A stretch of DNA of 64,000 bases from Polyangiales bacterium (lineage in GTDB: Bacteria > Myxococcota_A > Polyangia > Polyangiales > Houyiibacteriaceae), in the NCBI GenBank assembly GCA_045106895.1, contig JBGCFM010000024.1:64001-128000 (forward strand), given 5' to 3'. The translations under genes were made by a program, and so were the position numbers. Below, in pieces: positions 48,593 to 63,160 of this stretch (its first letter is position 1; each line of letters begins with the position of its first letter). The notes below the pieces were generated by a model, which saw nothing but the letters and a program-made list of their open reading frames with translations, was not told the DNA's origin and ran no database searches.

Positions 48593-51388
48593 CTAGAGGG
48601 TCAGCTCGCCGCCGGCCTCATCTTCTCGAACGTGCTTCGGGAAGAGGTCACGAGGCGACGGCGGACGGTAGGGCGCACCTTTGGTGGTGGAACGCATTCG
48701 AAGCCGAGGGCGCTTTACGACGACCTCATCGATGAAGGAGTCGAGCTCCGCTTCTGCCTTCTTGCTTTCGACGGGTAGGCGCGTCGCCTGAAGCGCGGTC
48801 TCAAGGGCGTCCGCGTCGACGCCTGCCGCTGCGAGGATCTGAGCACGCAGATCGAGGCCATCATTCTGCGGCGGGTTCTTCCGCACGGCGAGGGGAATCG
48901 CCACGTCGTCATCGACCGTCGCGGCGGGCGTTCCGGGCTCGGCGGTCTGAAGCATGAGCTCCGGAGTCGGCTTCGCGACACGAGCGACGGGACCATCGAA
49001 AACAGTGTCGGCGTCGTCCGTGGACTGAAGAGCGTCGAAGGTGTCCGCGTCAGCGGCCTCCGCCTCGACGACCTCAGCGGACGCCTCAACGATGTTCGTC
49101 GCTGTCGTCTGGAGAGCGAGGAGCTCTTCGAACACGGCTTGGGACTCCGTCGAGAGCTCGAATGAGACCTGGGCGTCCATGAGCTCCGCGAGGGCCTCTT
49201 GAGTCTCCGAGGAGGCCTCAAGCGCTGGCGTCTCGAGGGTGACGACTCCGTCCCGGACACGAAGGGCGCAGCTCGGCGCATCAAAGGCGGTTGTGGTGAG
49301 AACGCCTGCGTGGTGTGTCGCGCCAGCCCCTAGTCGCCGGAACTCCGGTCCGCTCAGGTATTCGAACATCGCGAATCGGACGGAGGCGTCGTCGGGCGTT
49401 TCATTCGACGTCTCGGGCGCTGGTGGCGCGACGCTGAGGGGCGTTACGTCGATGTCGATGGATGGGAAAGCCGCGGCTTCGGCATCGATGGGGAAGTCGA
49501 GCTCGATGTCGATGGATGCGAACGCTGCCGCTTCTGGATCGATGGGGAACAGGTCCTCGTCGCTCCCGGCGTCGGCAGCTTCGACGGCGTCGGCAGCTTC
49601 GGAGGCGGCTTCGACAGCGGCGTCCTCGGAGGCCGCTTCAACAGCGGCTACTTCGGAGGCGGCTTCGACAGCGGCGTCTTGGGAGGCCGCTTCTTCGGAG
49701 GTGTCCTCAGGGAAGAGGGTGTCATCAGAGAGGAGCGCGTCGAGGTCCGCCTCGGTCTCCGCGATGAGCGACGCGAGGGGTTGGGCCTCTCCATCGCGAA
49801 TGACGCACACTTGGTCGCGCTGGCGTCCACGGACGTCGATGATGCGCCGCACGCTGACAGGGTTTCGGAGCGGCTGAGAGGGAGCGAGGGGCGAAGGAGG
49901 AAGAGCAGCCGGCGCAGCGTCTACCTTCTCCACGACCATCGGCGTGAGGGGCATGGTGGCCGTGAGGCTCTTGGGCGAAGCCGCCTTCATCGGCGTGAGG
50001 GGCATGGTGGCCGTGAGGCTCTTGGGCGAGGTGTCTTCCTGCGCGTCCTTGGCATTCTGGCGAGGTCCCGGAGCGCTGGAGTCGGGGCCCGGAGCCTTGA
50101 GTCCGCCGCTGGCGGTTTTGAGGGTCTTCGCCTGCTTCTCGTCGTTCGCGAGCGCTTCTGGGCGAGGCATCGTGGGCTTGTACGTGCCGAGAGGGAGCGT
50201 CTTGCCCCCCGAGTGAAGCATGGGGTTCGCGTCGCTGACGTCGTCGACCATGATCGGCTGGAGCGGCTTCAGCGTGGCCTGAGGCACGACTACAGGAGCA
50301 AACTCGGCTTCGCTCGACGCCTCCGGCGTGCTCTCCGGCGCAACATCTTGCGCGAACATGGCGTCCACGTTGCGGATCAGCATCGAAGGGTTCGTGCTGC
50401 CCTGAAGGTCCACGGCTTCTGCTGGAGCGGCAGGAAGGGGCGCGCGTGCGCTGACAATGGAGCGCTTGAGATCGCTCATCGCGGATACGCCTGCGGCGAC
50501 GGCTCGGTCGAGCTCTTCGCTCATCGTCAGCTCATCGAAGGCGGCCTCGTGGGCGCCAGCGATGACGGCCATGTCCACGAGCATCAAGGGGTCGACCTCG
50601 ATGGTGGCGGCGTGTGCGCGAAGACGGTCCGCGTGTGCGACGCTGCCTTTCTCTTCGAGGAGGTCTGCCATGGTCTCCCAAGCTTCGACCCAGCCGCACT
50701 CCATCTGCGTCACGCGGCGCAGGGCGATCTCTGCGAGCTCACGTTCGCCGCGGGCCTTCAGAATTGTACCCTTCACAAAGAGTGCGTCGGCGTCTTCCCC
50801 GTCTCGCTCCAGGGCGTAGTTGAGCACGGCCAGGGCGTCATCGAAGCGCGATTCCGCCACGAGAGCGTTCGCGAGCATGGCGGCGTCATCAGCGTGCTCG
50901 TCCTGAAGAAAGCGGTCTTTGCGCAAGGTCAGTCGGTGAGCCTGCTCGATGTCCGCGCGAAGTGCGCAGGTCGCCGCGTCCGCAGGGTCCATCGAGTAGC
51001 AGCGCTCCACGGCGGCCCAAGCGCGACCGTAGTCCTCCATGTGGAAGAGCAGCCGTGCGAGACGGACCATCGGCTCAGCCCACTCCGGCGCGAGTCGCGC
51101 AGCTTTTACGAGAAGAGTCCGGGCATCCACGTGCTCGCCGAGGGTCTCGGCGATGCCGGCGCCAGTGAGCAGGAGGTCGACGTCCGTTGGGTCCTTGTGC
51201 AGCGCGGTCATGCATACGAGGCGCGCGTCCCGAAGACGACCCGCGCTGATGAGGTCCTGCGCGAGCATCACCGGCTCTTCGCTATCGCCTACGTTTTGGT
51301 GTCGAAGGACACGCATGGTGAGCGCGCGCTCTTCCATCTGCCTGCTGTCGAAAGCCAAGCCGCCCTCACGAATTTCAGTGTCGCCCAT
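48593..51388 (-). CDS. TPR protein with long acidic low-complexity tail
   Basis: N-terminal TPR-like helices; repeat-rich Ala/Glu/Asp C-terminal part; start uncertain (ORF open to 51547). Confidence 0.7.
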   Translation of the reverse strand: MGDTEIREGGLAFDSRQMEERALTMRVLRHQNVGDSEEPVMLAQDLISAGRLRDARLVCMTALHKDPTDVDLLLTGAGIAETLGEHVDARTLLVKAARLAPEWAEPMVRLARLLFHMEDYGRAWAAVERCYSMDPADAATCALRADIEQAHRLTLRKDRFLQDEHADDAAMLANALVAESRFDDALAVLNYALERDGEDADALFVKGTILKARGERELAEIALRRVTQMECGWVEAWETMADLLEEKGSVAHADRLRAHAATIEVDPLMLVDMAVIAGAHEAAFDELTMSEELDRAVAAGVSAMSDLKRSIVSARAPLPAAPAEAVDLQGSTNPSMLIRNVDAMFAQDVAPESTPEASSEAEFAPVVVPQATLKPLQPIMVDDVSDANPMLHSGGKTLPLGTYKPTMPRPEALANDEKQAKTLKTASGGLKAPGPDSSAPGPRQNAKDAQEDTSPKSLTATMPLTPMKAASPKSLTATMPLTPMVVEKVDAAPAALPPSPLAPSQPLRNPVSVRRIIDVRGRQRDQVCVIRDGEAQPLASLIAETEADLDALLSDDTLFPEDTSEEAASQDAAVEAASEVAAVEAASEDAAVEAASEAADAVEAADAGSDEDLFPIDPEAAAFASIDIELDFPIDAEAAAFPSIDIDVTPLSVAPPAPETSNETPDDASVRFAMFEYLSGPEFRRLGAGATHHAGVLTTTAFDAPSCALRVRDGVVTLETPALEASSETQEALAELMDAQVSFELSTESQAVFEELLALQTTATNIVEASAEVVEAEAADADTFDALQSTDDADTVFDGPVARVAKPTPELMLQTAEPGTPAATVDDDVAIPLAVRKNPPQNDGLDLRAQILAAAGVDADALETALQATRLPVESKKAEAELDSFIDEVVVKRPRLRMRSTTKGAPYRPPSPRDLFPKHVREDEAGGELTL
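49937..50029. repeat. Perfect 42-bp direct repeat, two copies, 51-bp period (SPKSLTATMPLTPM)
   Basis: Copies at 49937-49978 and 49988-50029 are identical. Confidence 0.9.
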
Positions 51389-51481
51389 GGCAGGAGAATC
51401 GCCGGCGGATCCCAATGCACCAACAATTCGACAAGACACCACAGATTGGGCGCCTTTTGCCGACTCACCTATAGTGGCCAC

Positions 51482-52690
51482 GTGGCTTTCCTGACTCGAT
51501 GCGCGGCTTTCTGTCTGGTCCTCCTGAGCGCCAGCGTCCATGCCCAAGACCTCGCTCCCACTCGCGCGACGAGCGTTCGCATCGTGGACGCCGACTCACC
51601 CGTCTTTCTGGCGGCGCGCGACCGAGCACCCCGACGCGGCACCATCGCCCTTGGAACGCACCTGCCGCTTCTGGGCCGCGTGCGTGGTGGCGGATGTCCG
51701 ACGGGCGTTTGGGCTCAGGTCGGCGAGTCCCTCTATATCTGTGACCGCCGCGTGGAGTACACGACGCGCCCCGCGAGCGGCTACAACCACCCTCGGATTC
51801 GTCCTGGAGAGCTCCTGCCCTTCAACTACGGCTTCGTGAGCATGGACGGCGTCCGGGCGTTCTCGCACCCCCAAGACTATTTCACCGATGACTACTACGA
51901 GGCCCTCGGCGCGGGCTTTGGCGTCATCGTCGCCGGGCGCGAGAGCTACGAGGGGATGCGCTTCATTCGAACCCGGCGGCGGCTCTATATCCCGGCTCAG
52001 TCCGTTCGAATGGCGCGGGGCAGTGACTTTGCCGGGGTGACGCTAGAAGAGGGAGCGCTCAACGTCGCTTGGGTTTCGGCTCGTCAAACTTCGGTCCGAG
52101 AGCGACCACGTGGCCGGAGTCTGCGGACCCTCGCCAAGCGGACCGCTGTTCGAATCGGCGAGCCGGAACGCGGCTGGGTGGAGCTCGCCGAGGGCGGCTT
52201 TGTTCGAACACGAGACCTGCGCATCGCCGAGCTCACCGAGCGACCCGAAGAGGTCGAGGACAGCGGCACGTGGATCGACATGGACGTATCGTCGCAGATA
52301 CTCGTGGCGTACCGCGGCGACACACCGGTGTTTACGACCCTCATCAGCAGCGGCCGCGCAGGCCGTCACCACGCGACGCCCCTTGGCACGCATCGCATCT
52401 GGGTGAAGCTGGCGTTCTCCGACATGGACAACCTTCAGCGTCAGAACGTGTCGCGAAACTACGCTATCGAGCGGGTGCCCTGGGTTCAGTACTTCGCGCG
52501 CGCAAACGGGCTCCACGCTGCGTTCTGGCATGACGACTTTGGCCGCCGGAAGAGCCACGGCTGCATCAACCTTTCGCCGCGAGATGCGCGGACGCTCTTC
52601 GAGTTCACGGAGCCTCGCCTGCCTGTGGGCTGGACCGCGATCTTCCCACGCGAGGACGAGCCCACCACGTATGTGCGGGTCCGGCCTTAG
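51482..52690 (+). CDS. L,D-transpeptidase (YkuD family)
   Basis: WIDMDVSSQ, TP.G, LHAAFWH...SHGCINL; signal peptide after GTG 51482. Confidence 0.88.
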   Translation: MAFLTRCAAFCLVLLSASVHAQDLAPTRATSVRIVDADSPVFLAARDRAPRRGTIALGTHLPLLGRVRGGGCPTGVWAQVGESLYICDRRVEYTTRPASGYNHPRIRPGELLPFNYGFVSMDGVRAFSHPQDYFTDDYYEALGAGFGVIVAGRESYEGMRFIRTRRRLYIPAQSVRMARGSDFAGVTLEEGALNVAWVSARQTSVRERPRGRSLRTLAKRTAVRIGEPERGWVELAEGGFVRTRDLRIAELTERPEEVEDSGTWIDMDVSSQILVAYRGDTPVFTTLISSGRAGRHHATPLGTHRIWVKLAFSDMDNLQRQNVSRNYAIERVPWVQYFARANGLHAAFWHDDFGRRKSHGCINLSPRDARTLFEFTEPRLPVGWTAIFPREDEPTTYVRVRP

Positions 52691-52724
52691 CCCTCAATCC
52701 GGTGTTAGTTGCGCGACTAACTTG

Positions 52725-54254
52725 TTAGATTCCGCTCACGTCACGCTTCGTCGAGACCGTGTAGGTCAACGTGAAGGTGCGCCTCTCCCCAGCCCGCAAG
52801 GTGTCCAGCCAGCGGACGAAGCCGTCTTTGTCTGGCTGCTTGGAGTCTGTGGTCTCCGCTCCGTCGACTTTGATCTCGACGCTCTCGAGCTCCGACACCG
52901 GCACCCGCTCGATGATCTCCAAGTGGTGGGTCCCGCGTCCAATGTTGGAGATCTTCAGCTGAATCTTCTTCGTCTTGTGGGTCCAGCCCCTCAACATGGA
53001 GTGTTTGGGATCTAAGTTCTTGCTCTCGCGTGTCACGCGAAGCTCGTTCTCTGGACCCCAACCCAAGTCGAAACGCTCCCCCGGCGCGACAAAGAGCGTC
53101 TTCGTCCGGCCAACAGGGCCCGACTCGCGAATGAGGTCGACGGGACCCGCGAGAACCGGCCGCGAACTCTCATTGCTCAGCGATGTCTTCTGCTGGACCG
53201 TGTTTTCAAGCTCACTGACCACAAAGAGCTTCGACTCGGCGGGCGCCGTAAAGGTGCTCAAAGGGATCCGATGAGGACGCCCGTCGGCGCGAACGGTGGC
53301 CTTACTTGGAGCCTTCAGGAGCAGGGCGTCTCCGCCGTCGTCGATGCCAGGCAGCTCCGAGGCGAGACGGGCGGCTCCTGCGCTCTCCACCTCTTCCTCG
53401 CGCATGGTGACCTGGGTACCCGAGGCTTTCTTCTGAACCCGAAGCTCGTCCGTCGACAGAAGCGGTGGGTCGACGCCCAAGGACGCGCGCTCCGTGGACA
53501 CCTCAAGTTCCACCTCGCTCCAGTCCTCTCCGGTGCGCTGCCAGACGCAGGCCTGAGTCTCAAAGTGGACCGCGCTTCCTTGCCAACGGGCGCGGTGTTG
53601 AGGCCGCCAGCATGCGCCGGGCACCGCGTAGCTGACGTCCAAGCGCGCATCTCCATCCGATTCACTCATGATACGAAGCTCGATCCAGGCGCATTCTTCG
53701 GAGGTGGTTCGCCGCGCGTCTCGAAGCAGGACGCGGATGTCGTTGAGTTCCTCGACGGCGTCGTTGGCCTGCTGAACGCCCTTGGCGATGTCCTCGTGAA
53801 GTCCCGAGATACGCCCGGCGATCTCTGTGAAGGTTGCCTCCCAGCTATCGGAGGAGTTCCTGCCCCACGCCACATCCACGCTCGCCTCCGTGGCGGCTTT
53901 GGACGACGAGTCTTCCCAGAAACGCAGGTCTTCACGCATGCCGTCGAGGCGTGCGTTGGTGGCTTCGCTCTTTCGCGCGGCGACGCGCTCGAGCTCTATC
54001 AGTTCCTTCACACGGGCTGGCTGCTCTTCGCTTCGGTGGACACGAAAGCGGCGCACGCGCGCGTCGAGGACGCGGGCGTCGCCTGCTTTGACGACAAGGG
54101 TCTTGTCGATGAGGGCCGGAGCCACGCCTTCGACGCGAAGCCGCTGGATGCCGCTTTTGAGGGGGACTGTGCTCTCGCGCTCGATGAGGGCGCGTTCTTC
54201 AAGGACCGTGACCCGCCTGATGGGGCACTCGATGTTGGCGCTGTCTTCGCTCAT
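52725..54254 (-). CDS. DUF4140/DUF4139 (MuiA-like) protein
   Basis: VTVLEERA, Y.VPGACWRP, QRTGEDW, ERVPVSE. Confidence 0.85.
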   Translation of the reverse strand: MSEDSANIECPIRRVTVLEERALIERESTVPLKSGIQRLRVEGVAPALIDKTLVVKAGDARVLDARVRRFRVHRSEEQPARVKELIELERVAARKSEATNARLDGMREDLRFWEDSSSKAATEASVDVAWGRNSSDSWEATFTEIAGRISGLHEDIAKGVQQANDAVEELNDIRVLLRDARRTTSEECAWIELRIMSESDGDARLDVSYAVPGACWRPQHRARWQGSAVHFETQACVWQRTGEDWSEVELEVSTERASLGVDPPLLSTDELRVQKKASGTQVTMREEEVESAGAARLASELPGIDDGGDALLLKAPSKATVRADGRPHRIPLSTFTAPAESKLFVVSELENTVQQKTSLSNESSRPVLAGPVDLIRESGPVGRTKTLFVAPGERFDLGWGPENELRVTRESKNLDPKHSMLRGWTHKTKKIQLKISNIGRGTHHLEIIERVPVSELESVEIKVDGAETTDSKQPDKDGFVRWLDTLRAGERRTFTLTYTVSTKRDVSGI

Positions 54255-56290
54255 GCGTCTCTCCGGTTTCCGCCCGCGAGCTCGTTCTTCGATGAGATCT
54301 TGATGGTGTAGCTCGCACCCAGGACGTGTTTTTCGCCGCGGGCCAGTGGAATCTTCCACTCGTAGCCGCCTCGGAGGGTGTCGTCCTTGTTCTTGTAGGG
54401 GCTCCACCGGGGCTCGCACTTCACGACGCGGACCTCGATATCGTCCTCGTCCTCCCGGAGCACGGGGATACGCTCACGCACCTCCAGAAGCGCGTCGGTG
54501 TCGATGTAGCTGACCACCTCGACCTCGAGATGATGCTCCAGCTCAAGGGACCCACGCAGCATCCCAGCGACGCTCTCCTCGAACTGCACGTTTCGAGCGA
54601 CCTTGATGCGTTGCTCCACACCGAGGCCGAGCTTCAGCGTCTCTCCGGGGCCGACCACAGGCATCGCGCGAGCAAGGAGGAAGCGGCCGTCGATGTAGAT
54701 ATCGAGGGGACCGGCGAGGAGTGGGGCCTCAAGGGGGTTCGCGATGTCGATGAAGCGGAACACCTCTCGGCTCTCGCGCGGAACACATACAAAGCGAGGC
54801 GTGCCCTTGGCGTCAGCCACGCTGAGGGATGCGCCGACCCAGCTTCCGTCGGATGGAATCGTCGCGTTGCCTTCCACCTCGAAGCTGTAGTCGAAGCCCT
54901 CGACGGGGCGCGGCAAGACGTGGCCTGGAGGCTCGGCTGTCAGTGAGTGGCTGCCCGCGGCTTTCGCTTCGCGTCGCTCGCGCCGGAGCTTTCCCCGGCC
55001 CGGATCGCTCGCGGCTGGCATTCGTAAGTTGCCGAACTGAAGCCATTCATCACCGGGGCGCAGTGGGCCCTCCGCGGACATGGAGTCCATGCCGTCCATC
55101 CCGCCAAGCATGGTGTCCTCCATGGCGCCTTCGGGCTCGCTTCGGCTCGCGCGAACATCGAGCTTCGCCGACAGAGCTCGAGGCGCCGCAGACTTCTTCT
55201 TCATTCGCCTGCCCCGGGCCATCGAGCGTGGTGCTGGCGCGGCGAGCTCCTCGGCGGCTTCGATCATCGGCGCTCCGACGGGCGCTGCTCCACCAAAGCC
55301 CGGCGGCGCCTGAGGCGGAGGTGGGGGCGCGGCGGGTGCGGGAGCCGACATGGGCATCGCCACAGGCTTGGCGGGGGGTCTTGCGGGCTTAGGCGCCGGA
55401 CGAAAGCCTTGGTCGTAGTCCTGGAAGAGCATGTCGACGCCGCTCGGCGGTGGCCGATAACCCTTTGTCGCCGGGGCAGGCTGCCGGCGGCCGATACGAA
55501 GTGAACGCAAGACTGGAAGCTCCGCGTGGGCCTGGGGGATAGCCGTCGAGAGCCGGAGACGTGCCTCGTTCCAGTCCTCGCCGGAGTGCTGCGCGATGAG
55601 CGCCCGTGTCTCCAGACGGACTTTGCGCAGGCCCTCTTCGAGGCGAAGAACATAGGAAGGTCGCCATGACGCCGTAGGAACCATGTACTCCAGCCAAACG
55701 GTCCCCGCGTTTCCGTCGAGGCTGAGGTCGACGGCTTTGCGCACCTCGTTCTCTCGTGCCGCGACGGCGTTCCCGGCCCGTTTACGCTTCTCTTGGAGGT
55801 CTTTGCGTTCTTCAACGGCCAAACGAAGCGCCTCTGTAAGGGCGGCGCGTTCCTCACGGCGTTGCTCCAGCTGAGCGCGCCGAAAGTCGATGAGTTTGGA
55901 GCGCGCGGCGCTGGGGATGGCCACGGGCACTTCGCCTTCGGCGCGACCCCGAGGCTTGATCGAGAGCGTCTGCAGGTCCTGGACGATTCGGTCGACGGCG
56001 GCGATGCGCGCTTTGGCGATCCGTTCCGCTTCCATCGCAGCCCGCAGCTCCGTGTCCCGCGCTGGGGTTTCGGCCGCGTCATCGTTTCCGAGGGCGAGCA
56101 CCACCACCGCTTCGCTGGCCATAGTGCCTTCCGCTCGAACGCGTAGAGTGCTGTCCACAAGGGAGAGGGGGAGTCCGAGGACTCGGCCCTTCGTCACACC
56201 TGCAGAGATCTCAACCTGGCGCCGTACGATGGCGCCACGCCGGAAGACGGTCACATCGTCGATGCTCGAAGAAAGGGGCGTCGGCTTCAT
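54251..56290 (-). CDS. DUF4140/DUF4139 protein
   Basis: VTVFRRGA, ASWRPSY, QHSGEDW, LLAGP, GGNRRD end; ATGA overlap with its paralogue. Confidence 0.85.
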   Translation of the reverse strand: MKPTPLSSSIDDVTVFRRGAIVRRQVEISAGVTKGRVLGLPLSLVDSTLRVRAEGTMASEAVVVLALGNDDAAETPARDTELRAAMEAERIAKARIAAVDRIVQDLQTLSIKPRGRAEGEVPVAIPSAARSKLIDFRRAQLEQRREERAALTEALRLAVEERKDLQEKRKRAGNAVAARENEVRKAVDLSLDGNAGTVWLEYMVPTASWRPSYVLRLEEGLRKVRLETRALIAQHSGEDWNEARLRLSTAIPQAHAELPVLRSLRIGRRQPAPATKGYRPPPSGVDMLFQDYDQGFRPAPKPARPPAKPVAMPMSAPAPAAPPPPPQAPPGFGGAAPVGAPMIEAAEELAAPAPRSMARGRRMKKKSAAPRALSAKLDVRASRSEPEGAMEDTMLGGMDGMDSMSAEGPLRPGDEWLQFGNLRMPAASDPGRGKLRRERREAKAAGSHSLTAEPPGHVLPRPVEGFDYSFEVEGNATIPSDGSWVGASLSVADAKGTPRFVCVPRESREVFRFIDIANPLEAPLLAGPLDIYIDGRFLLARAMPVVGPGETLKLGLGVEQRIKVARNVQFEESVAGMLRGSLELEHHLEVEVVSYIDTDALLEVRERIPVLREDEDDIEVRVVKCEPRWSPYKNKDDTLRGGYEWKIPLARGEKHVLGASYTIKISSKNELAGGNRRDA

Positions 56291-56331: not shown

Positions 56332-58197
56332 CTATTCGGGGGTATCTGGGCTCAGAAGGAACCGCTGAACGTCGATGGGGCCTTCAAGCTCGCCCTCTTC
56401 GTTGGGGGTCTGAAGCGCCGCGGCCAACGCGCGTGCGTGTTCATCTTCGTCGTTCATGGCCAACACATCGTCCATGGCCGCGCGCGCAAACTCGCGGTCA
56501 CCCCGCTCGGCGTAGAACACAGCGTCTTGAAAGCGTCGCCAGAACACCTGGGCGCGCGTCTCGGCGTCTCGAACATCGAGGCGCTCCATGAGGTGCTGCC
56601 ATCGCCGGCTTTGGTCTTCAGCGCCTTCGCGGCGGTCGTTGTCGCTCGCGTTTGCGCTGACCACCTCGTAGTACGCGCCGCGAGGGACGAGGGTCCCGAA
56701 GAGCGTTGGGTCGACGCGAGGATCCAGCTCCAAAAGCACCGGGCGATCCCCTGCCAGGCTCTGAAGGTCGCTGAGGCGCACGTGGCCCACCATGAGAACT
56801 CCTCGCAGCAGGTCGCGCAGCGCGGGTTCCTCGGCGACAAGGTCGTCCACCATGCCCGGGTAGGGCAGAAGAGGAACCGGAACGAGGGTCACGTCCGGCC
56901 GAAGGCGCTCTTCCGCCTCGCCGCCCCAGTAGCGGAAAATGGTCTGCGGAGAATGAGCGATGACGATGGCTCGGTCCGGGAGGTCGCGACGGATCAAGTC
57001 ATCGAAGAGGTCGGCGTCGTTGAACCCAGCGAGGGAGGCTCTCTCGGCGTGCCGTGGGAACTGGCTGGCGCCTCCAAGGGAGAGAAGCACCACCACGGCG
57101 ACGAGCCACTTGGGCGCCTGTCGGCGTGCGCCGACGACCATTTGGAAGACCGTCGCGAGGAACGCGCCGGCCATCACCACGAGGGCCATCATCGCGGGGA
57201 TGAGGTAACCCAAGGCGTCCGGATTATTCCTCACGAAGCCCAGCCACGCGCGAGCGGAGAGAAAAATCAGCAGGATGAGCGTCCAAATAACGCCGACGCG
57301 ACGTGTTTTGGCCAAGCGCAGCAAGACGTAGAGCCCGATAAGAGCGCAGACGAGGAGCCCCACGTGGAGGCTGTCGGCGAGCTGCACGAGCACATCCGCA
57401 AAGCGCTCACCCAGCGGCTGAGGGACGCCGGCGCCCTGGTTTTTTTGGAAGGCCTCGGCGCTCACCGTCCAGTAGAAGCGGCTGAAGCTGTCCGGATGTC
57501 CCAAGCGAAGCGCAGCGTCACTGCCGGCGCGAAGCGGCAGGTAAACGTAGGTGAGGAGACCGGCGAGGCCGGCTGTTGCAGCGAAGCCGAGGCCTCGAAA
57601 CCCGCGCTCGCGGACCCAGCGGCCCAGCGTCGCGGCGGCGGCGGGAAGAAGCAGAAGCGCGAGGAGATGGTGGTTCGCCAGGGCCAAACCAAAGACGAAG
57701 GCGCCCGCGACGAGAAAGCGTCCTTTGGGCGGGGGCCACTCTTTCTCAAAGCGGATCAGCTGGCTGATGACGAAAGCGAGGAGCGCGGCTTGAAGTGCGT
57801 ATACCTCAGGCCGAACCGCTTGAAACCAGAACCCAAAGGCGCCGGCGAGCCACCAAGTGGAGCCGATGGCGAGGGGTGTCGCGATCTCTGGCCCGGTGAC
57901 TTCGAGGTAGGTGCTTCGCGCCGCGCGGTAGAAAAAGAGCGTGGCGAGGCCCGCACACAGAGCGCTGATGAGCGCCACGCGGAACGCGACGGGACCGATG
58001 GGAAGCAGCATCGCCGCGCCATGGACGAGACCGGCGAGGGGATGGCCCGGCGGGTGAGCGATGCCGAGGTCCACGGCTTGCGCCACGAAGGTCCCGGAAT
58101 CGAGCCAATGAGCGGAAGGAGCGCTGGTGGCCAAATAGACCGCTGTTGGGACGCCAGCTGCGAGCATCGCAGGGCGTGGCCCGTCGCTCCACGTCAT
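56332..58197 (-). CDS. DUF2723/TMEM260-family membrane protein (putative protein O-glycosyltransferase)
   Basis: DSG, GIAHPPGHP, EVYAL, LANHH, YLPLR. Confidence 0.85.
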   Translation of the reverse strand: MTWSDGPRPAMLAAGVPTAVYLATSAPSAHWLDSGTFVAQAVDLGIAHPPGHPLAGLVHGAAMLLPIGPVAFRVALISALCAGLATLFFYRAARSTYLEVTGPEIATPLAIGSTWWLAGAFGFWFQAVRPEVYALQAALLAFVISQLIRFEKEWPPPKGRFLVAGAFVFGLALANHHLLALLLLPAAAATLGRWVRERGFRGLGFAATAGLAGLLTYVYLPLRAGSDAALRLGHPDSFSRFYWTVSAEAFQKNQGAGVPQPLGERFADVLVQLADSLHVGLLVCALIGLYVLLRLAKTRRVGVIWTLILLIFLSARAWLGFVRNNPDALGYLIPAMMALVVMAGAFLATVFQMVVGARRQAPKWLVAVVVLLSLGGASQFPRHAERASLAGFNDADLFDDLIRRDLPDRAIVIAHSPQTIFRYWGGEAEERLRPDVTLVPVPLLPYPGMVDDLVAEEPALRDLLRGVLMVGHVRLSDLQSLAGDRPVLLELDPRVDPTLFGTLVPRGAYYEVVSANASDNDRREGAEDQSRRWQHLMERLDVRDAETRAQVFWRRFQDAVFYAERGDREFARAAMDDVLAMNDEDEHARALAAALQTPNEEGELEGPIDVQRFLLSPDTPE

Positions 58198-58972: not shown

Positions 58973-60244
58973 ATGCCTCGCTTTCTCTTTGTCGCTCTGG
59001 TCATCGCTCTCTCTGGCTGCGGAGACGACGATCGTATCGCCGTCGATGTCGGCCCTTTGCCCGATGCAGCGACGGACACTGGGACCCGCGATGTGCCAGC
59101 GCCAAGCGATGTCGGGACAGACGTGCCATTCGACGCAGGCCCTCAGGACTGCGCGTCGATCTTGCGCTCCGATGTGAACTTCCGCCTGAGCGATGAGGGC
59201 CTCGCGATTCACCCCGCCGCGGCCTTCGACGGCGACGCTCTCTGGCTCACCTACACCATCCGCGAGGGCGAGACCTCGAACTTCGATGTGGTTCTTCGCC
59301 GCGTCGCATGTGACGGAAGCACAGGCCCGACCGTCGTCGTCAATGCTGGGCCCGCAGGTGAAAGCGACCTCGACAGCGACGTCGCCATCAGCGGCGAGCG
59401 CCTCCTCGTGGGCTACCAAAGCGATGACCAAAGCGGCGAGAACTCTGCGATTCGCCCGTTCGTCCGTGCCTTCGACCTCAGCGGCGCCGCCCTCGGCGAA
59501 CCCCAAGCCGTGGCTCGAGTCCGCGATGGCGAGACCATCATGGCTACGAACTGGATGGTTCGCGTCGCCTCGCGACCCGGCGGATTCTGGGTCGCTGGCA
59601 CCTGGGGCGTCGAAGCGGTCAGCGGTTTCCGCGGCTACGCATCGCGCCTCGACATGGACGGCGTCGAGCTCGCGCCGGCCACCGACGTCGCCCCCACAGA
59701 CCAGGTGGAGTCCCAGACCAACCTCGCCATCGGCGACGGAGAGACTCCCTTTGTGTCCTGGACCAACTTTGGTGACGCCAGCCAAGTCGCCAGCGCTCCC
59801 ATCGGCGGAGACGTCACGGAGTTCGAGAGTGGAAGCATCACTGAGGATTACCCGGCCCTCTCCGGCGAGCTGCTCTCGCTCCAGTCCGGCGGCGGCTCGC
59901 GCCTCAGTATTCAGGTGCACAACTTAGTCACCGGCGCGACAGCGAGCATCGGCGGAATCTCCGATGCCAACGCCTTCTCGGACATCGCGGGCACTCCTGA
60001 CGCCTTCGCCATCGTATGGCTGCGTCAGATCAGCGGCACCCGAAATGACGTCTTTGTGGCGAGCGGCAGTGAAAGCGGAGGTGTCATGACCTTGTCCGCG
60101 CCCGTCGCCATCGACACCAGCGCCGACGCCGCAGCCTACCCGCCCTTCATCGTGGCCCTCGGCGAGGGTCGCTACTTCGTGGGCTGGACCCAGGTTGTCA
60201 TGAGCCCGGACTTCCAGGTCCACGGCCGCATCGTCGAGTTCTAG
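58973..60244 (+). CDS. Lipoprotein with beta-propeller-like repeats
   Basis: LSGCGDDD lipobox; recurring P.....G.. [FY].V.W blade-like motifs. Confidence 0.7.
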   Translation: MPRFLFVALVIALSGCGDDDRIAVDVGPLPDAATDTGTRDVPAPSDVGTDVPFDAGPQDCASILRSDVNFRLSDEGLAIHPAAAFDGDALWLTYTIREGETSNFDVVLRRVACDGSTGPTVVVNAGPAGESDLDSDVAISGERLLVGYQSDDQSGENSAIRPFVRAFDLSGAALGEPQAVARVRDGETIMATNWMVRVASRPGGFWVAGTWGVEAVSGFRGYASRLDMDGVELAPATDVAPTDQVESQTNLAIGDGETPFVSWTNFGDASQVASAPIGGDVTEFESGSITEDYPALSGELLSLQSGGGSRLSIQVHNLVTGATASIGGISDANAFSDIAGTPDAFAIVWLRQISGTRNDVFVASGSESGGVMTLSAPVAIDTSADAAAYPPFIVALGEGRYFVGWTQVVMSPDFQVHGRIVEF

Positions 60245-60852
60245 CGCTGCACCTTCGCCCGCGTGATAGCGAGCTGAATCAAAACGATGCTCAACACGAG
60301 GAGCGCGATCCCGGGCAGGATGAAGTAGAGATGTGTCTCCGAGAACAAGCTGGACGTCTCCAGGTCTACGGGGCGACTGCCATAAGGAAGTGAGCTATAG
60401 CCAGCGCGGACTCTGTAGAACTGCAGCGGCCACACAAAGGGTTTTAGAATCAGGGCAACGGCCGCGAAGGGGGCAAATGCCGCCGCGCTCCGAACCCACC
60501 GGCCCCAGTAGAAGGACGCGGCTCCGCCGGCGACGAGAACCGCGGCTGCGAGCGGGTGAATCGAGTCGACGACCCTTACTCCTAGGTGCGCGCGTTCGTT
60601 CGCGATGGTCTCGGTGAGAAAGAGCTGGAGAAAGAAGAAGCCAGCGCCCGTTAGCGCCACTCCCAAGAGCGCGCCAACCCACTTGGTGACGGCCTTTGGG
60701 ATTCGCTCCCGTAGCTTCCGCGCGGCTTCGCCGGTGAATGCCAGCAAGAGCATGATGGCTGCCACCACGCAGATCCCAATGGCGACCTCTTCCGAGACGG
60801 GGATCCTGACGCCGAAGTGTGGATGGATCATGCGTTCACATACGGGAGCCAC
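60241..60852 (-). CDS. Multi-pass membrane protein
   Basis: About five hydrophobic helices; 33 bp downstream of the radical SAM gene, same strand. Confidence 0.6.
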   Translation of the reverse strand: MAPVCERMIHPHFGVRIPVSEEVAIGICVVAAIMLLLAFTGEAARKLRERIPKAVTKWVGALLGVALTGAGFFFLQLFLTETIANERAHLGVRVVDSIHPLAAAVLVAGGAASFYWGRWVRSAAAFAPFAAVALILKPFVWPLQFYRVRAGYSSLPYGSRPVDLETSSLFSETHLYFILPGIALLVLSIVLIQLAITRAKVQR

Positions 60853-60885: not shown

Positions 60886-62202
60886 CTAGGCGATGACGCG
60901 AAGCCGCTTTTTGGCATCTTCGGTTTCCCAGACGCCGCCGCTTTGCCACTTGAGCGCCATTACCTCTGCCACGGGGCGGCCCAGGATCGTGGCGTCTGCA
61001 CCTGGGGGAGGCGCGTCGATCACGACCGTCTCGAATCGGCCGTGGTCAAAGGGGTCACCTGCCGCTGCTTCCACGCGGCGCAGGACCTCGTGTTTGCCGT
61101 CCGCTTCGTAGGTGAGCGCACGGTGAATGCAATAGGGGTTATTGCCTGGACGCCCCATGATCACCTGGGCTGTCCACGTGCATCCGCCTTTGCAGATGTC
61201 CGCGTAGTAGCAGGTGCCGCAGAAGCCCCAGAGGTCTTCCTTGGTTCGCTCGGCGATGAAGGTGATGCGCTCCGAGCCTTCCATGACCTCGGCGACGGGC
61301 GAAGTGCGCGCGTTTCCGCCTGCGAAGTCCTCCGTGGGCAACGAGGGGCAGGCCTTGATGGTGCCATCGGCTTCCACGCCCATGCAGTCTTTGCCTGCAC
61401 CACAGCCGCCCCAGTGCGTGCCTTCTTTGCCGCCGAAACGAATGGCCTCTTCGTATTCACCGAAGTAGCCGATGTTGTTTCCAGGGAAGACATCGATGTT
61501 CGCCGGCGTGAGCTTCTCCTTCTTGAGCCAGGCGATGAGCGGAAAGAGCTCCAACAGATCGTAAGGCTGAAGAAGCAGCTCCGGCCGGTCTGCGGCGCGT
61601 CCCATCGGGACGGTGAGCTGAAGCTGCCAGGCTTCGACGCCTAGCTCGATGAGGAGGTCGGCGAGGGCCGGCAGCTCCGGCATGGAGAGCCGGTTGATCT
61701 GCGAGTTGACCCCAAGGCGAATGCCGGACGCTTGCACACGCTTCGCTGCAGCCACGGCGTTGCGAAAGGAGTCGCTCGTGCCGCGCTGAAGGTTGTGCGT
61801 GCGCTCGAGCCCATCGATGCTCATGGAGATGCCGCTCACCCCCGCGGCCACGGCACGGTCGATGCGCTCTTGGTTAAACCCGCGTCCGCCCGTCGTGATG
61901 CCGCAGGAGATGCCCGCGTCGACGATGGCTTTCGCGATGATGTCCCAGTCTTCACGCAGGTAGGCTTCGCCGCCGATGAGCGTGACCTCGAGCATGCCCA
62001 TCTCCGCCAGCTGACGAACAACGTCGAGGCACTCTTCGGTGCTCAGTTCGTCTTCACGCGCTTTGCCTGCCCGAGAGCCGCAGTGTCTACAACCAAGGTC
62101 GCAGGCGAGGGTGATCTCCCAAACGCAGTAGCGAACGCCCGGCGCGTTACCATTTCGCACCAGCTCTCGTGCGTCCTCGGTACGCTGAATGTCTTCGTTC
62201 AC
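60886..62202 (-). CDS. Radical SAM/SPASM peptide maturase, splicease (PlpX)-like
   Basis: WEITLACDLGCRHCGSRAG (CxxxCxxC), IGGE, SIDG; SPASM GCGAG...KACP...CGTC-x5-CKGGC...GNNPYC. Confidence 0.88.
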   Translation of the reverse strand: MNEDIQRTEDARELVRNGNAPGVRYCVWEITLACDLGCRHCGSRAGKAREDELSTEECLDVVRQLAEMGMLEVTLIGGEAYLREDWDIIAKAIVDAGISCGITTGGRGFNQERIDRAVAAGVSGISMSIDGLERTHNLQRGTSDSFRNAVAAAKRVQASGIRLGVNSQINRLSMPELPALADLLIELGVEAWQLQLTVPMGRAADRPELLLQPYDLLELFPLIAWLKKEKLTPANIDVFPGNNIGYFGEYEEAIRFGGKEGTHWGGCGAGKDCMGVEADGTIKACPSLPTEDFAGGNARTSPVAEVMEGSERITFIAERTKEDLWGFCGTCYYADICKGGCTWTAQVIMGRPGNNPYCIHRALTYEADGKHEVLRRVEAAAGDPFDHGRFETVVIDAPPPGADATILGRPVAEVMALKWQSGGVWETEDAKKRLRVIA

Positions 62203-62612
62203 TTTTTACGTTTGGGTGCGATGCCATACAACGCGACGACCCCAGGTCGCTCTACGGGATCCTCAAAGCGATCGGGGTCTTCCGGCTCTGGGTCGGGGTT
62301 GGAGGCTTCTGGCTCTGGCTGGGGCTCTGGCTCTGGCTCTGGCTGGGGCTCGGGCTGCGGAGCCGGCTCTGGAGCGGGGGTGGGCTGCTCGATGACTGGT
62401 TCGTTCGTCGGCTCCTCAGCTTGCGGCGTCGATCCCCCACACGCCATCGCGAAGAGCGAGGCCGCAAGAAGTCCTCCGCGACGTCCGCCCTGTGCTTTTC
62501 GGTCGCAGAACGGACACGAGGTCTTGGAGGGGGTCGCGCTTGCGTGAACATGTCGGCGGCAGCGCGTGCAACGCGTCAGTCCATCGACTGAAACTCGTTT
62601 ATCTACAGTCAT
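62199..62612 (-). CDS. Putative precursor A2: Zn-ribbon leader, lipobox, E/P stalk, C-terminal LYG
   Basis: CTRC-x14-CPFC, RRGGLLAASLFAMAC, PEP repeats, ALYGIAPKRKK; GGAGA RBS; GTGA overlap with the radical SAM gene. Confidence 0.8.
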   Translation of the reverse strand: MTVDKRVSVDGLTRCTRCRRHVHASATPSKTSCPFCDRKAQGGRRGGLLAASLFAMACGGSTPQAEEPTNEPVIEQPTPAPEPAPQPEPQPEPEPEPQPEPEASNPDPEPEDPDRFEDPVERPGVVALYGIAPKRKK

Positions 62613-62666
62613 CGAAGGTATCTCCAGCTGGGCATACCCAAGCTACGTTTGTGTTCAGAAAACGGT

Positions 62667-63071
62667 CTATCGACGTATTGGTGCGCGGCCGTAGCGGGCC
62701 ATCGGAGCCATATCGGGAGCAGGCTCGGGATCGAAGGGTTCGGCTTCCGGCTCCGGCTCCGGCTCTGGCTCCGGAGTCGCGATGGGTTCGGGCTCTACTT
62801 CGGGTTCAGGGTCCGCCTCGGGTTCAACGGCGGGTTCAACGGCGGACTCTACAGCAGGCTCGTTGGCCGGCTCTTCCGCCGCCGGCTCCGCTCCGCCGCA
62901 GGCCATCGCGAAGAGTGATGCCGCGAGGAGCGCTCCCCGTCGTGACTTCGGCGTTTTCTGATCGCAGAAAGGGCAGGCCGTCGCGCTAGGCGATTCGCCT
63001 GCCTGAACATGCCTTCGGCAGCCGGTGCAGCGCGTCAGTCCATCTGTCGAAACTCGTTTTTCTACGCTCAT
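62667..63071 (-). CDS. Putative precursor A1: Zn-ribbon leader, lipobox, E/P stalk, C-terminal RYG
   Basis: CTGC-x14-CPFC, SRRGALLAASLFAMAC, PEP repeats, ARYGRAPIRR; GGAGA RBS; clear paralogue of A2. Confidence 0.8.
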   Translation of the reverse strand: MSVEKRVSTDGLTRCTGCRRHVQAGESPSATACPFCDQKTPKSRRGALLAASLFAMACGGAEPAAEEPANEPAVESAVEPAVEPEADPEPEVEPEPIATPEPEPEPEPEAEPFDPEPAPDMAPMARYGRAPIRR

Positions 63072-63160
63072 TCTTCAGTCTCCAAGGCTTGGGACAGGAT
63101 ACGTGAGCACTTCCTTGGCACCAAGCTCAACTTTCTCGAGTCCGTGGTGTCCGAGGAAGC

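Follow-up and report, generated by a model that had tools for sequence, protein, structure and literature searches.

The three minus-strand genes A1, A2 and X, lying in that order in the window (the whole stretch of 64,000 nucleotides analysed here), constitute a real and so far unnamed variant of the splicease-type systems: two small paralogous proteins and, behind them, a radical SAM/SPASM enzyme. The reading that we favour, and to which we assign a probability of about 0.55, is that A1 and A2 are precursors, that X is the splicease-type enzyme acting on them, and that the products are lipid-anchored keto-amide proteins, likely inhibitors of proteases. Excision of tyramine, lipidation, location and protease inhibition are each inferred for the A1 and A2 products.

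The operon

Coordinates are collected in Table 1. The first-pass annotation had placed the two small genes directly upstream of the radical SAM/SPASM gene, with the A2 stop overlapping the enzyme start, and the ORF list and the sequence agree: A2 ends ...AAA AAG TGA, with the annotated GTG inside it. The overlap suggests translational coupling of the enzyme to A2. The true start of the enzyme is uncertain because its alignments with homologues begin at residues 7-25 and another in-frame GTG lies 42 nt downstream of the annotated one. Both precursor genes are preceded by a ribosome-binding-like box; a scan for sigma-70 promoters returned no sites, and a terminator scan gave 5 terminator-like sites against 3.1 expected, none of them at the operon end. 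That no leader protease or dedicated exporter adjoins the operon, as had also been stated, is borne out by the adjacent genes and by Pfam analysis of 13 genes at 33-56 kb, among which neither was found. Three neighbours were considered as conserved accessory genes and ruled out: the genes downstream of the operon for a 203-aa membrane protein and a 488-aa protein are shared only with the closest relative, L013, and a TMEM260-like gene is shared only with L013 and L017.

Table 1. Features of the operon; positions are those of the window.
Feature	Position	Strand	Basis
A1 precursor gene, 134 aa, ATG start	62667..63071	(-)	ORF and sequence
A1 putative zinc ribbon, C15, C18 ... C33, C36; H21	62964..63029	(-)	alignment of 15 precursors, model
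A1 hydrophobic h-region ending in lipobox-like A-M-A-C58	62898..62936	(-)	alignment, model, family pattern
A1 candidate splice site, PMA-R126-Y127-G128-RAPI	62676..62705	(-)	alignment, predicted interface
A2 precursor gene, 137 aa, ATG start; A1 paralogue with L-Y-G site	62199..62612	(-)	ORF
A2 putative zinc ribbon, C15-C36	62505..62570	(-)	alignments
A2 h-region and lipobox-like AMAC58	62439..62477	(-)	alignments
A2 candidate splice site, VVA-L128-Y129-G130-IAPK	62211..62240	(-)	sequence, alignments
Radical SAM/SPASM enzyme gene (X), 438 aa, GTG start; splicease-clade relative	60886..62202	(-)	ORF, family models
GTGA, overlap of A2 stop and annotated enzyme start, 4 nt	62199..62202	(-)	sequence
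GGAGA ribosome-binding-like box, 8 nt upstream of A1 ATG	63079..63083	(-)	sequence
GGAGA ribosome-binding-like box, 8 nt upstream of A2 ATG	62621..62625	(-)	sequence

The enzyme

The best NCBIfam match of X is TIGR04103 (472.6 bits, curated cut-off 725), the second TIGR03913 (438.4 bits, cut-off 591.75) and the third TIGR04133, or rSAM_w_lipo (176.7 bits, cut-off 425); the heme, PQQ and mycofactocin SPASM families give at most 141 bits. Since its scores lie under the curated cut-offs of both leading families, X is called a relative, and not a member, of TIGR04103/TIGR03913. The same best-family pattern is found in all 46 aligned relatives, the three copies of the enzyme in this genome all score under the TIGR04103 cut-off, and among 92 representatives a single one exceeds the cut-off of TIGR03913 and none that of TIGR04103. 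In the tree, X belongs to a Myxococcota clade next to TIGR03913-like representatives, its nearest outside group; support is 100/100 for the clade of the window's enzyme and 77-86% for the deep joins. The original assignment of X to the splicease clade is supported, within these limits: profile scores separate it from the heme/PQQ/mycofactocin SPASM enzymes and put the two named families first, both of them under cut-off. Two outcomes that would have told against it, grouping of the enzyme with those other SPASM families and lack of YG conservation near homologous enzymes, were looked for, and neither was found. The tree contains no characterised splicease, PlpX included, and it is therefore the family model and the XYG motif that connect X with tyramine excision.

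Pfam recognises Radical_SAM (70 bits) and SPASM (PF13186, 25.8 bits), the CxxxCxxC cysteines (C34, C38, C41) and the SPASM cysteines (C267, C285, C328, C331, C337, C341, C358) are invariant in 46 sequences, and the two motifs pointed out at the start, VWEITLACDLGCRHCGSRAG and GRPGNNPYCIHRAL, are present. An AF2 model of the enzyme (pLDDT 88.1, pTM 0.90) finds its best Foldseek matches in PqqE, SkfB and SuiB, with no solved splicease among the matches.

Might the pairing of enzyme and precursors be as proposed and the chemistry another, for example cross-linking (C-C or C-O), hydroxylation, epimerisation or cleavage at Tyr-Gly, with no tyramine excised? The enzyme invites the question on several counts: it reaches neither family's cut-off and lies in a separate Myxococcota clade, the nearest representative that does pass a cut-off (P0015, 49% identity) passes that of TIGR03913, and the SPASM enzymes of similar fold in the Foldseek list run many different reactions. 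The reply comes from the target site, to which we return below.

The precursors and their pairing with the enzyme

Of 80 related loci, which come almost without exception from Myxococcota, 59 encode a zinc-ribbon protein with a YG site within 2.5 kb of the enzyme gene. The 21 loci that lack such a neighbour include three ribbon ORFs cut by a contig end and four YG ORFs missed by the pattern; in six of the 80 no candidate precursor is found despite full 4-kb flanks. (A technical note: in this survey and in the site counts for the 79 family proteins from 60 loci, a simple rule fixed where each family ORF starts, and some of these start codons may be wrong; alignment A4 excludes L028 and L042, which have internal stops.) Enzyme subclades track precursor type and gene order: the corresponding labels change 10 times on the enzyme tree, against a mean of 40.2 for shuffled labels, a value that 0 of 200 shuffles matched.

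These observations weigh heavily on the question of whether A1 and A2 are substrates at all. They might instead be, for example, zinc-finger regulators in the membrane that happen to be encoded beside an unrelated radical SAM enzyme. Neither protein matches any family model in NCBIfam or Pfam, and the neighbouring genes offer no functional context, which fits that view; but the adjacency in those 59 loci, the co-variation of enzyme clade and precursor type, the confinement of Tyr to YG and a predicted complex that passes its controls make this very improbable.

A1 can be parsed into a putative zinc ribbon, a signal anchor with a lipobox-like AMAC, a Pro/Glu stalk, the R-Y-G site and a basic tail; A2 is 61% identical to it. 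Searches of the two proteins with NCBIfam and Pfam models found no leader of the Nif11 or NHLP type. Identity by region in 10 close homologues is 0.79 for the head, 0.47 for the stalk and 0.63 for the 10-residue site, the last being near-identical within each paralogue type; the contrast between stalk and site is the one that had been noticed first, a diverged stalk before a conserved C-terminal site. To judge from the alignments, conservation in the precursors is highest in the N-terminal Cys4 zinc ribbon, which had been given too little weight. Its C15, C18, H21, C33, F35 and C36 are invariant in 15 aligned precursors, and the predicted model of A1 has pLDDT 78-87 over residues 11-40.

The region that follows reads SRRGALLAASLFAMAC-GG. 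Across the 15 precursors R45, G46, A50 and A51 vary little if at all and C58 is present in all 15, and in A1 a helix is predicted for residues 47-57. Of 79 family members, 65 match a relaxed lipobox pattern, and xGC or xAC is still present in most of the other 14; the genome encodes two lspA matches over the cut-off in a profile search. As a signal for signal peptidase II the sequence is nonetheless atypical, because the lipobox-like Cys is residue 58, because some 45 aa of folded n-region, with the zinc ribbon (about 40 aa) in it, precede that Cys, and because the residue at -3 is Ala and not Leu. The original description of the precursors as lipoprotein-type accordingly has to be qualified for the placing of Cys58 behind a ribbon. 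Export by the Tat route, suggested by SRRG, was rejected: R45 alone comes close to being invariant, and GRG or ARG is the usual reading in the orthologues.

The same peculiarities raise an alternative in which splicing takes place as proposed and no lipoprotein is made: the helix would stay in the membrane as a permanent anchor, and the resulting bitopic protein would keep its ribbon in the cytoplasm and its stalk outside. It would account for a Cys58 that lies behind a folded domain, beyond the usual range of lipoprotein signals, for the Ala at -3 and for the 14 of 79 family members that fail even a relaxed pattern, and proteins combining a zinc ribbon with a transmembrane segment are met in other phyla (Atlas matches at TM ~0.3, leads only). 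It would not account for the cysteine, which a plain transmembrane anchor does not need: nearly all members close the h-region with a Cys preceded by a small residue, and this Cys is found in every one of the 15 clade precursors and survives as xGC or xAC in most of the lipobox misses. We consider the permanent anchor rather unlikely and continue with the lipoprotein.

The Tyr-Gly sites

Each precursor has exactly one tyrosine, Y127 of A1 within ...PMARYGRAPIRR and Y129 of A2 within ...VVALYGIAPKRKK; sequence and alignments are at one with the claim that this single Tyr sits in a conserved C-terminal YG site. Y127, G128 and P131 are nearly invariant in the 15 precursors, PMARYG[RL]APS is kept in the A1 orthologues P0002-P0005, and VVALYGIAPK/R in the A2 orthologues P0006, P0008 and P0009. 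In the wider family (79 members, 60 loci) 164 of 211 tyrosines are followed by glycine; since the frequency of Gly is 0.134, conservation of YG is more than chance, and it extends, as had been predicted, to the neighbours of homologous enzymes. The consensus of the 79 zinc-ribbon YG proteins is [P/A]-x-Y-G-x-P-P; in a logo of 159 sites, position -2 is P in 88 and A in 49, +3 is P in 116 and +4 is P in 103.

We know of no other class of RiPP radical SAM enzyme that keys on Y-G, and this counts against a different chemistry. By its sequence, the family context resembles the splice tags derived from PlpA, PIRPLYGLPI (PMC10533398, Table 1), and X-Y-G is the motif by which the targets of known spliceases are defined (PMC11414181, PMC11002830). 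With tyrosine almost confined to YG, and that YG set in a PlpA-tag-like hydrophobic-Y-G-hydrophobic-Pro context, we hold a reaction other than tyramine excision to be distinctly unlikely.

A predicted complex

Three runs of complex prediction for enzyme and precursor gave ipSAE values of 0.65, 0.00 and 0.74, that is, a median of 0.65 with one of the three runs at 0.00, and the best of three controls gave 0.00. Of 157 solved complexes, 116 attained that mark, as did 2 of 215 mismatched pairs. At least 30% of contacts are common to the runs, and partner pLDDT is at least 63. On the precursor side the predicted interface comprises residues 4-21, 34, 40-57 and 118-132, Y127 and G128 among them. 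On the enzyme side it takes in all six core strands (24-27, 72-76, 99-103, 123-126, 162-166, 190-193) and, further, residues 247-266, 332-336, 360-367 and 400-415. The model supports binding of the precursor through both its ribbon and its YG segment.

A proposed pathway

The precursor, as we read it, runs from ribbon through a signal-anchor helix (to Cys58) and a stalk of about 65 aa, disordered and rich in Pro and Glu, to the C-terminal X-Y-G, and its maturation might proceed as follows: 1) The Cys4 zinc ribbon, in the cytoplasm, would serve as leader or handle; the cytoplasmic enzyme would bind it and draw the YG segment into the enzyme barrel. 2) A tyramine equivalent (C8H9NO, -135.07 Da) would be cut from the backbone, by analogy with PlpX-type spliceases, and the residue left would be an alpha-keto-beta-amino amide with the side chain of Arg (A1) or Leu (A2). 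3) The modified protein would then be exported through its own signal; Cys58 would be lipidated, and cleavage by LspA would remove the signal peptide and, with it, the ribbon. 4) The end product would be a lipid-anchored stalk of about 77-80 aa with a keto-amide at its tip, whose likeliest role would be that of a tethered reversible-covalent inhibitor of envelope serine or cysteine proteases, the paralogues probably differing in specificity (P1 Arg for A1, P1 Leu for A2).

Precedents exist for two parts of this scheme. Splicing turns inactive Rheinheimera peptides into inhibitors of elastase, chymotrypsin and cathepsin B (PMC11626197); an inhibitory function of the A1 and A2 products is suggested by that analogy. 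Use of the lipoprotein pathway by RiPP precursors is described for MNIO enzymes in the available text of PMC13056109.

Comparison with known systems

In the type I systems PlpX/PlpY/PlpA and PcpXYA of Pleurocapsa a radical SAM/SPASM enzyme acts, as here, on the X-Y-G of a neighbour's product (accessible parts of PMC11414181 and PMC11002830), and the type I site LYGLPI shares its hydrophobic-Y-G-hydrophobic-Pro context with the LYGIAP and LYGIPP found here; keto-amide products are expected of both. The differences lie in the accessories and in the enzyme itself. Type I requires a separate, RRE-like Y protein (PMC11414181, in the part available), whereas the adjacent ORFs, searched with NCBIfam and Pfam, include no Y gene; its leaders, as described in the accessible literature, are of the Nif11 or NHLP type, in place of which there is here a Cys4 zinc-ribbon head, followed by a signal anchor that ends in a lipobox-like Cys; and X scores 472.6 bits against the TIGR04103 cut-off of 725.

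The Rheinheimera type II systems (RhaX/RhaA, RcsX/RcsA, RasX/RasA) come closer in being binary and without a Y protein, to go by the available text of PMC11414181 and PMC11626197. There too a structured N-terminal element of the precursor is predicted to dock while the XYG occupies the active site, and the products are protease inhibitors (PMC11626197, same portions), a role that may extend to A1 and A2. What docks in type II, however, is an alpha-helix belonging to a soluble leader, and the peptides made are released; here its place is taken by a zinc ribbon followed by an export signal, and there is a long acidic stalk, often with several sites per family protein.

The DAG-RiPPs (DybA/DybH and relatives; PMC13056109) supply the other half of the comparison: modification in the cytoplasm by an enzyme that lacks a signal peptide is followed by the lipoprotein pathway, and signal peptidase II removes the N-terminal part to leave a lipid-anchored product, which is the logic proposed here. 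Their enzyme, in contrast, is an MNIO (ChrH-type) and not a radical SAM/SPASM protein, and their signal peptide is ordinary and lacks the zinc ribbon that is a feature of A1 and A2. The terms "radical SAM" and "splice" are absent from the text of PMC13056109. Two family names deserve mention: TIGR03913 is the GDL motif peptide-associated radical SAM/SPASM maturase, its partner peptides being compared here by name alone, and the short name of TIGR04133 points to a pairing of radical SAM enzyme and lipoprotein, a comparison by model name and score alone.

Implications

Spliceases are, to our knowledge, the only route to beta-amino keto-amide residues in ribosomal products. The types of spliceotide are reportedly defined by Scott et al. 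2022 (Chem), with 27 characterised spliceases. That work is cited, in the part of PMC10533398 available, for 939 predicted spliceotide systems. A search of the literature found nothing that joins a splicease with a lipoprotein, and the mentions of "myxo" in the accessible text of PMC11626197 do not concern myxobacterial spliceotides.

The operon offers a testable end product for a spliceotide: an envelope protein, putatively lipid-anchored, whose leader would be removed by the general lipoprotein machinery. One may go further and suppose, as a less likely possibility, that the ribbon is the cytoplasmic leader and LspA the leader peptidase, that the products form a tethered keto-amide shield against proteases, and that this would be the first defined native product and role of a spliceotide. 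The mature proteins would then be lipid-anchored stalks about 20 nm long bearing keto-amide warheads, with the P1 residue fixed for each paralogue (Arg in A1, Leu in A2), and the shield, directed against the cell's own or rival proteases, would be tethered to the envelope in about one-third of the sampled Myxococcota. The zinc ribbon, a predicted docking element of about 40 aa, might also prove useful in protein engineering, where the Rha leader helix has already served.

Extent of the family

The family is carried by 140 of 401 sampled Myxococcota genomes, in none of which a TIGR03913 match over the cut-off was found, and at least 7,685 protein clusters at 90% identity match at E<=1e-60. Large as it is, it is invisible in present annotation: database names for the proteins of the system are only "radical SAM protein" or "hypothetical protein", none of 7 tree representatives has an informative name, and P0021 is, generically, a "radical SAM protein with 4Fe4S-binding SPASM domain". 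Atlas matches scoring 0.86-0.88 are unnamed Myxococcota clusters and serve as leads only. For P0011, the precursor of the closest relative, an internal Met has been taken as the start, and the entry is a hypothetical protein of 78 aa.

Organization of the operon

The operon occupies the right end of the window, on the minus strand, and consists of three genes arranged head to tail: those of the paralogous small proteins A1 and A2, the candidate precursors, and that of a radical SAM/SPASM enzyme. A GGAGA box precedes the ATG of A1 and of A2 at 8 nt, and the GTG start of the enzyme is shared with the A2 stop (overlap GTGA). Where the enzyme really starts is uncertain, since alignments with relatives begin only at residues 7-25; whichever start is right, the three genes are tightly linked. 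A scan found no sigma-70-like promoter and no convincing terminator.

The next gene on the same strand, encoding a multi-pass membrane protein without a family match, begins 34 nt past the enzyme stop and is found elsewhere only in the closest relative, locus L013. A membrane protein farther along has a TMEM260-like protein O-mannosyltransferase domain (PF11028, 91.6 bits); its gene is also close to the cassette in L013 and L017. Beyond it, a protein with a C-terminal YkuD L,D-transpeptidase domain is adjoined by two adjacent DUF4139/DUF4140 proteins.

Coordinates of the operon, its neighbors and two related loci of the same genome
Feature	Position	Strand	Length
A1 gene	62667-63071	minus	134 aa
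A2 gene	62199-62612	minus	137 aa
Radical SAM/SPASM gene	60886-62202	minus	438 aa
Multi-pass membrane protein	60241-60852	minus	203 aa
TMEM260-like membrane protein	56332-58197	minus	621 aa
YkuD-domain protein with the two DUF4139/DUF4140 proteins	49679-56290		1003 aa (YkuD-domain protein)
Paralogue locus, contig C271	L002:832-1548		
Third precursor type, contig C222	L003:1060-1434		

Anatomy of the precursors

A1 and A2 have no family match in Pfam or NCBIfam, where searches gave just noise from low complexity and a weak suggestion of a zinc ribbon. Fifteen aligned clade members share: 1) a Cys4 zinc ribbon (C15, C18, H21, C33, F35 and C36 invariant); 2) a basic patch (R45 and G46 nearly invariant); 3) a hydrophobic helix ending A-M-A-C58, with C58 invariant; and 4) a C-terminal site (Y127, G128 and P131 nearly invariant), which in A1 and A2 follows a stalk rich in Pro and Glu. 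AlphaFold models only the ribbon (pLDDT 78-87 at residues 11-40) and helix 47-57 with confidence, the remainder being without secondary structure. Is the helix a cleaved lipoprotein signal? It could instead be a permanent anchor: the Cys is unusually distant from the N terminus, and Ala occupies position -3.

A1 and A2 contain one Tyr each. Both paralogue types are kept in close homologues of other assemblies (PMARYG[RL]APS for A1, VVALYGIAPK/R for A2), twice on a single contig (P0003 with P0006, P0004 with P0009). Pairwise identity among these homologues averages 0.79 in the head, 0.63 in the site and 0.47 in the stalk, which ranges from 48 to 78 aa and varies in sequence too. Most clade members carry a series of sites, of which A1, A2 and their closest kin retain just the last.

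The enzyme and its relatives

The enzyme scores 472.6 bits with TIGR04103 (nif11-class peptide radical SAM maturase 3, which we take to be IPR026482) and 438.4 bits with TIGR03913 (GDL motif peptide-associated maturase), its two best NCBIfam models; TIGR04133 comes third at 176.7 bits, and models of heme, PQQ and mycofactocin enzymes reach at most 141, which supports the splicease-like assignment of the first-pass annotation. Both scores fall below the curated cut-offs (725 and 591.75 bits, respectively), so that the enzyme is to be regarded as a relative, rather than a called member, of these families. The founding splicease, PlpX, has been placed in class IPR026482 (PMC11002830).

Across 46 enzyme relatives, neither the CxxxCxxC motif nor any of seven SPASM cysteines varies. 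The AlphaFold model is confident (pLDDT 88.1, pTM 0.90) and combines a six-stranded partial barrel with the SPASM region and, at the C terminus, an extension made up of strands and helices; its closest solved folds are PqqE, SkfB, SuiB, ChlB and anSME. The library of solved folds yielded no splicease structure, in agreement with PMC11414181, according to which none had been solved.

A maximum-likelihood tree was built from 73 rows, no characterised splicease among them: the window enzyme, two same-genome paralogues, 43 locus enzymes and 27 representatives drawn from a library of 1.84 billion proteins. The enzymes sort with their precursors: the window enzyme's clade (support 100/100) has the precursor upstream, a second (99/95) has it downstream, and a third (100/100) goes with precursors whose YG follows directly on the lipobox Cys. 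Precursor-type labels change 10 times on the tree, as against 40.2 when shuffled (0 of 200 shuffles were as low). Support for the whole Myxococcota assemblage is 86/94, and it joins TIGR03913-like rows at 77/78. Among 92 full-length representatives scanned, one passes the TIGR03913 cut-off and none that of TIGR04103. Since the enzyme lies in its own clade and below both cut-offs, its chemistry could differ, the site undergoing a reaction other than tyramine excision.

Distribution of the system

A scan of one genome per species gave 558 confirmed enzyme relatives, of which the best 80 loci were kept; nearly all of these carry a Myxococcota label, Sorangium cellulosum So ce56 and Polyangium among them. 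The expectation that YG genes would recur beside homologous enzymes held in 59 of these 80, with a protein starting CxxC...CxxC and bearing YG within 2.5 kb. The remaining 21 include three with a ribbon ORF broken by a contig end and four whose YG ORF the search pattern missed; no candidate precursor is present at six of the best 80, whose flanks are complete.

Gly, whose frequency is 0.134, comes directly after 164 of the 211 Tyr in 79 ribbon-plus-helix proteins (60 loci), which have zero to five YG sites each. The logo of 159 sites has P (88) or A (49) at -2, A/L/P/V at -1, A/G/I/L at +2, and Pro at +3 (116) and +4 (103), a context resembling the PlpA-derived splice tags PIRPLYGLPI (PMC10533398, Table 1).

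Matches at E<=1e-60 occur in 140 of 401 sampled Myxococcota genomes, none of which exceeds the TIGR03913 cut-off; of 23 further genomes in the window's family, 2 have one. The window's genome holds three enzyme copies, and a different precursor type goes with each. The paralogue enzyme at L002 is 55% identical, and its divergently transcribed ribbon/lipobox precursor has two sites, PPYGIPP and PAYGAPP. The sole YG of the L003 precursor directly follows the lipobox Cys (TLMACYG...), so that the lipidated Cys would itself be the X of X-Y-G. This type recurs in L073, L074, L076-L080 (So ce56 being L078), L086, L087, L091 and L092; in L003 and L078 a MopE-like metal-binding motif (PF11617) follows the YG. 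Another subtype (L065, L067, L069, L070, L072) has a fixed C-terminal PPYGCVFP-x-x-x-C, with three such genes in tandem in L070; its three enzymes in the tree (L065, L070, L072) form a 100/100 clade. Contigs labelled non-Myxococcota, perhaps through mis-binning, also carry the enzyme: Frankia sp. AiPs1 (L084), whose upstream ORF has PAPVYGGPPLP without ribbon or helix, and Planctomycetota MAGs (L053 and L062), the latter with a complete five-site ribbon/lipobox precursor.

Predicted docking of precursor and enzyme

Complex prediction with alignments of both partners supplied gave ipSAE values of 0.65, 0.00 and 0.74 in three runs (median 0.65) and 0.00 in all three controls. Of 157 solved complexes, 116 reach the tool's mark, as do 2 of 215 mismatched pairs; these rates are only approximate here because the alignments were self-supplied. 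Contacts agree by at least 30% between runs, with partner pLDDT at least 63. The confident interface on the precursor comprises residues 4-21, 34, 40-57 and 118-132; within it, predicted error is lowest where residues 8-21 and 34 of the ribbon meet residues 247-265, 332-336 and 360 of the enzyme. Since the remaining enzyme contacts spread over all six barrel strands, the simplest reading would put the YG segment there. The prediction supports precursor-enzyme binding, and the modeled A1 docking parallels the AlphaFold picture of RhaX/RhaA, with a leader element on the enzyme and XYG within the active site (PMC11414181). That the small proteins are unrelated neighbors of the enzyme is very unlikely in view of their adjacency, the co-variation of enzyme clade with precursor type, the restriction of Tyr to YG sites, and this docking.

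A proposed maturation pathway

If A1 and A2 are lipoprotein-type splicease substrates, then in the likeliest mechanism the ribbon would remain cytoplasmic and recruit the enzyme, which would excise tyramine from R-Y-G (A1) or L-Y-G (A2), leaving an Arg- or Leu-derived alpha-keto-beta-amino amide. Export would come next, and then lipidation at Cys58 and cleavage by LspA (two copies in this genome), with loss of the ribbon along with the signal peptide. The same maturation logic has been demonstrated experimentally for MNIO-modified DAG-RiPPs (PMC13056109), in a paper whose available text mentions neither radical SAM enzymes nor splicing.

The mature N termini would be CGGAEPA (A1) and CGGSTPQ (A2). 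In Myxococcus xanthus, Lys at +2 marks inner-membrane lipoproteins and Ala at +7 is linked to matrix export (PMC3222651); neither protein would have the former, and A1 would have the latter, though applying these rules to this organism is speculative. What might a tethered keto-amide do? In Rheinheimera, spliced peptides act as inhibitors of serine and cysteine proteases and unspliced ones do not (PMC11626197), which by analogy suggests protease inhibition; in that case the fixed Arg and Leu would serve as P1 residues aimed at different protease classes.

Annotation and precedent

A literature search found nothing combining a splicease with a lipoprotein; outside its reach lay the prediction by Scott et al. 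(2022) of 939 systems in 189 genera (PMC10533398, PMC10849128), which may already include the zinc-ribbon class. Public names for the enzymes, listed for 120 of at least 7,685 clusters, go no further than "radical SAM protein" or "radical SAM protein with 4Fe4S-binding SPASM domain"; precursors are "hypothetical protein" or nameless. In the public record the gene call for P0011, the A1 orthologue of L013, starts at an internal Met (MACGG...) and gives a hypothetical protein of 78 aa, which leaves ribbon and signal out of the annotation.
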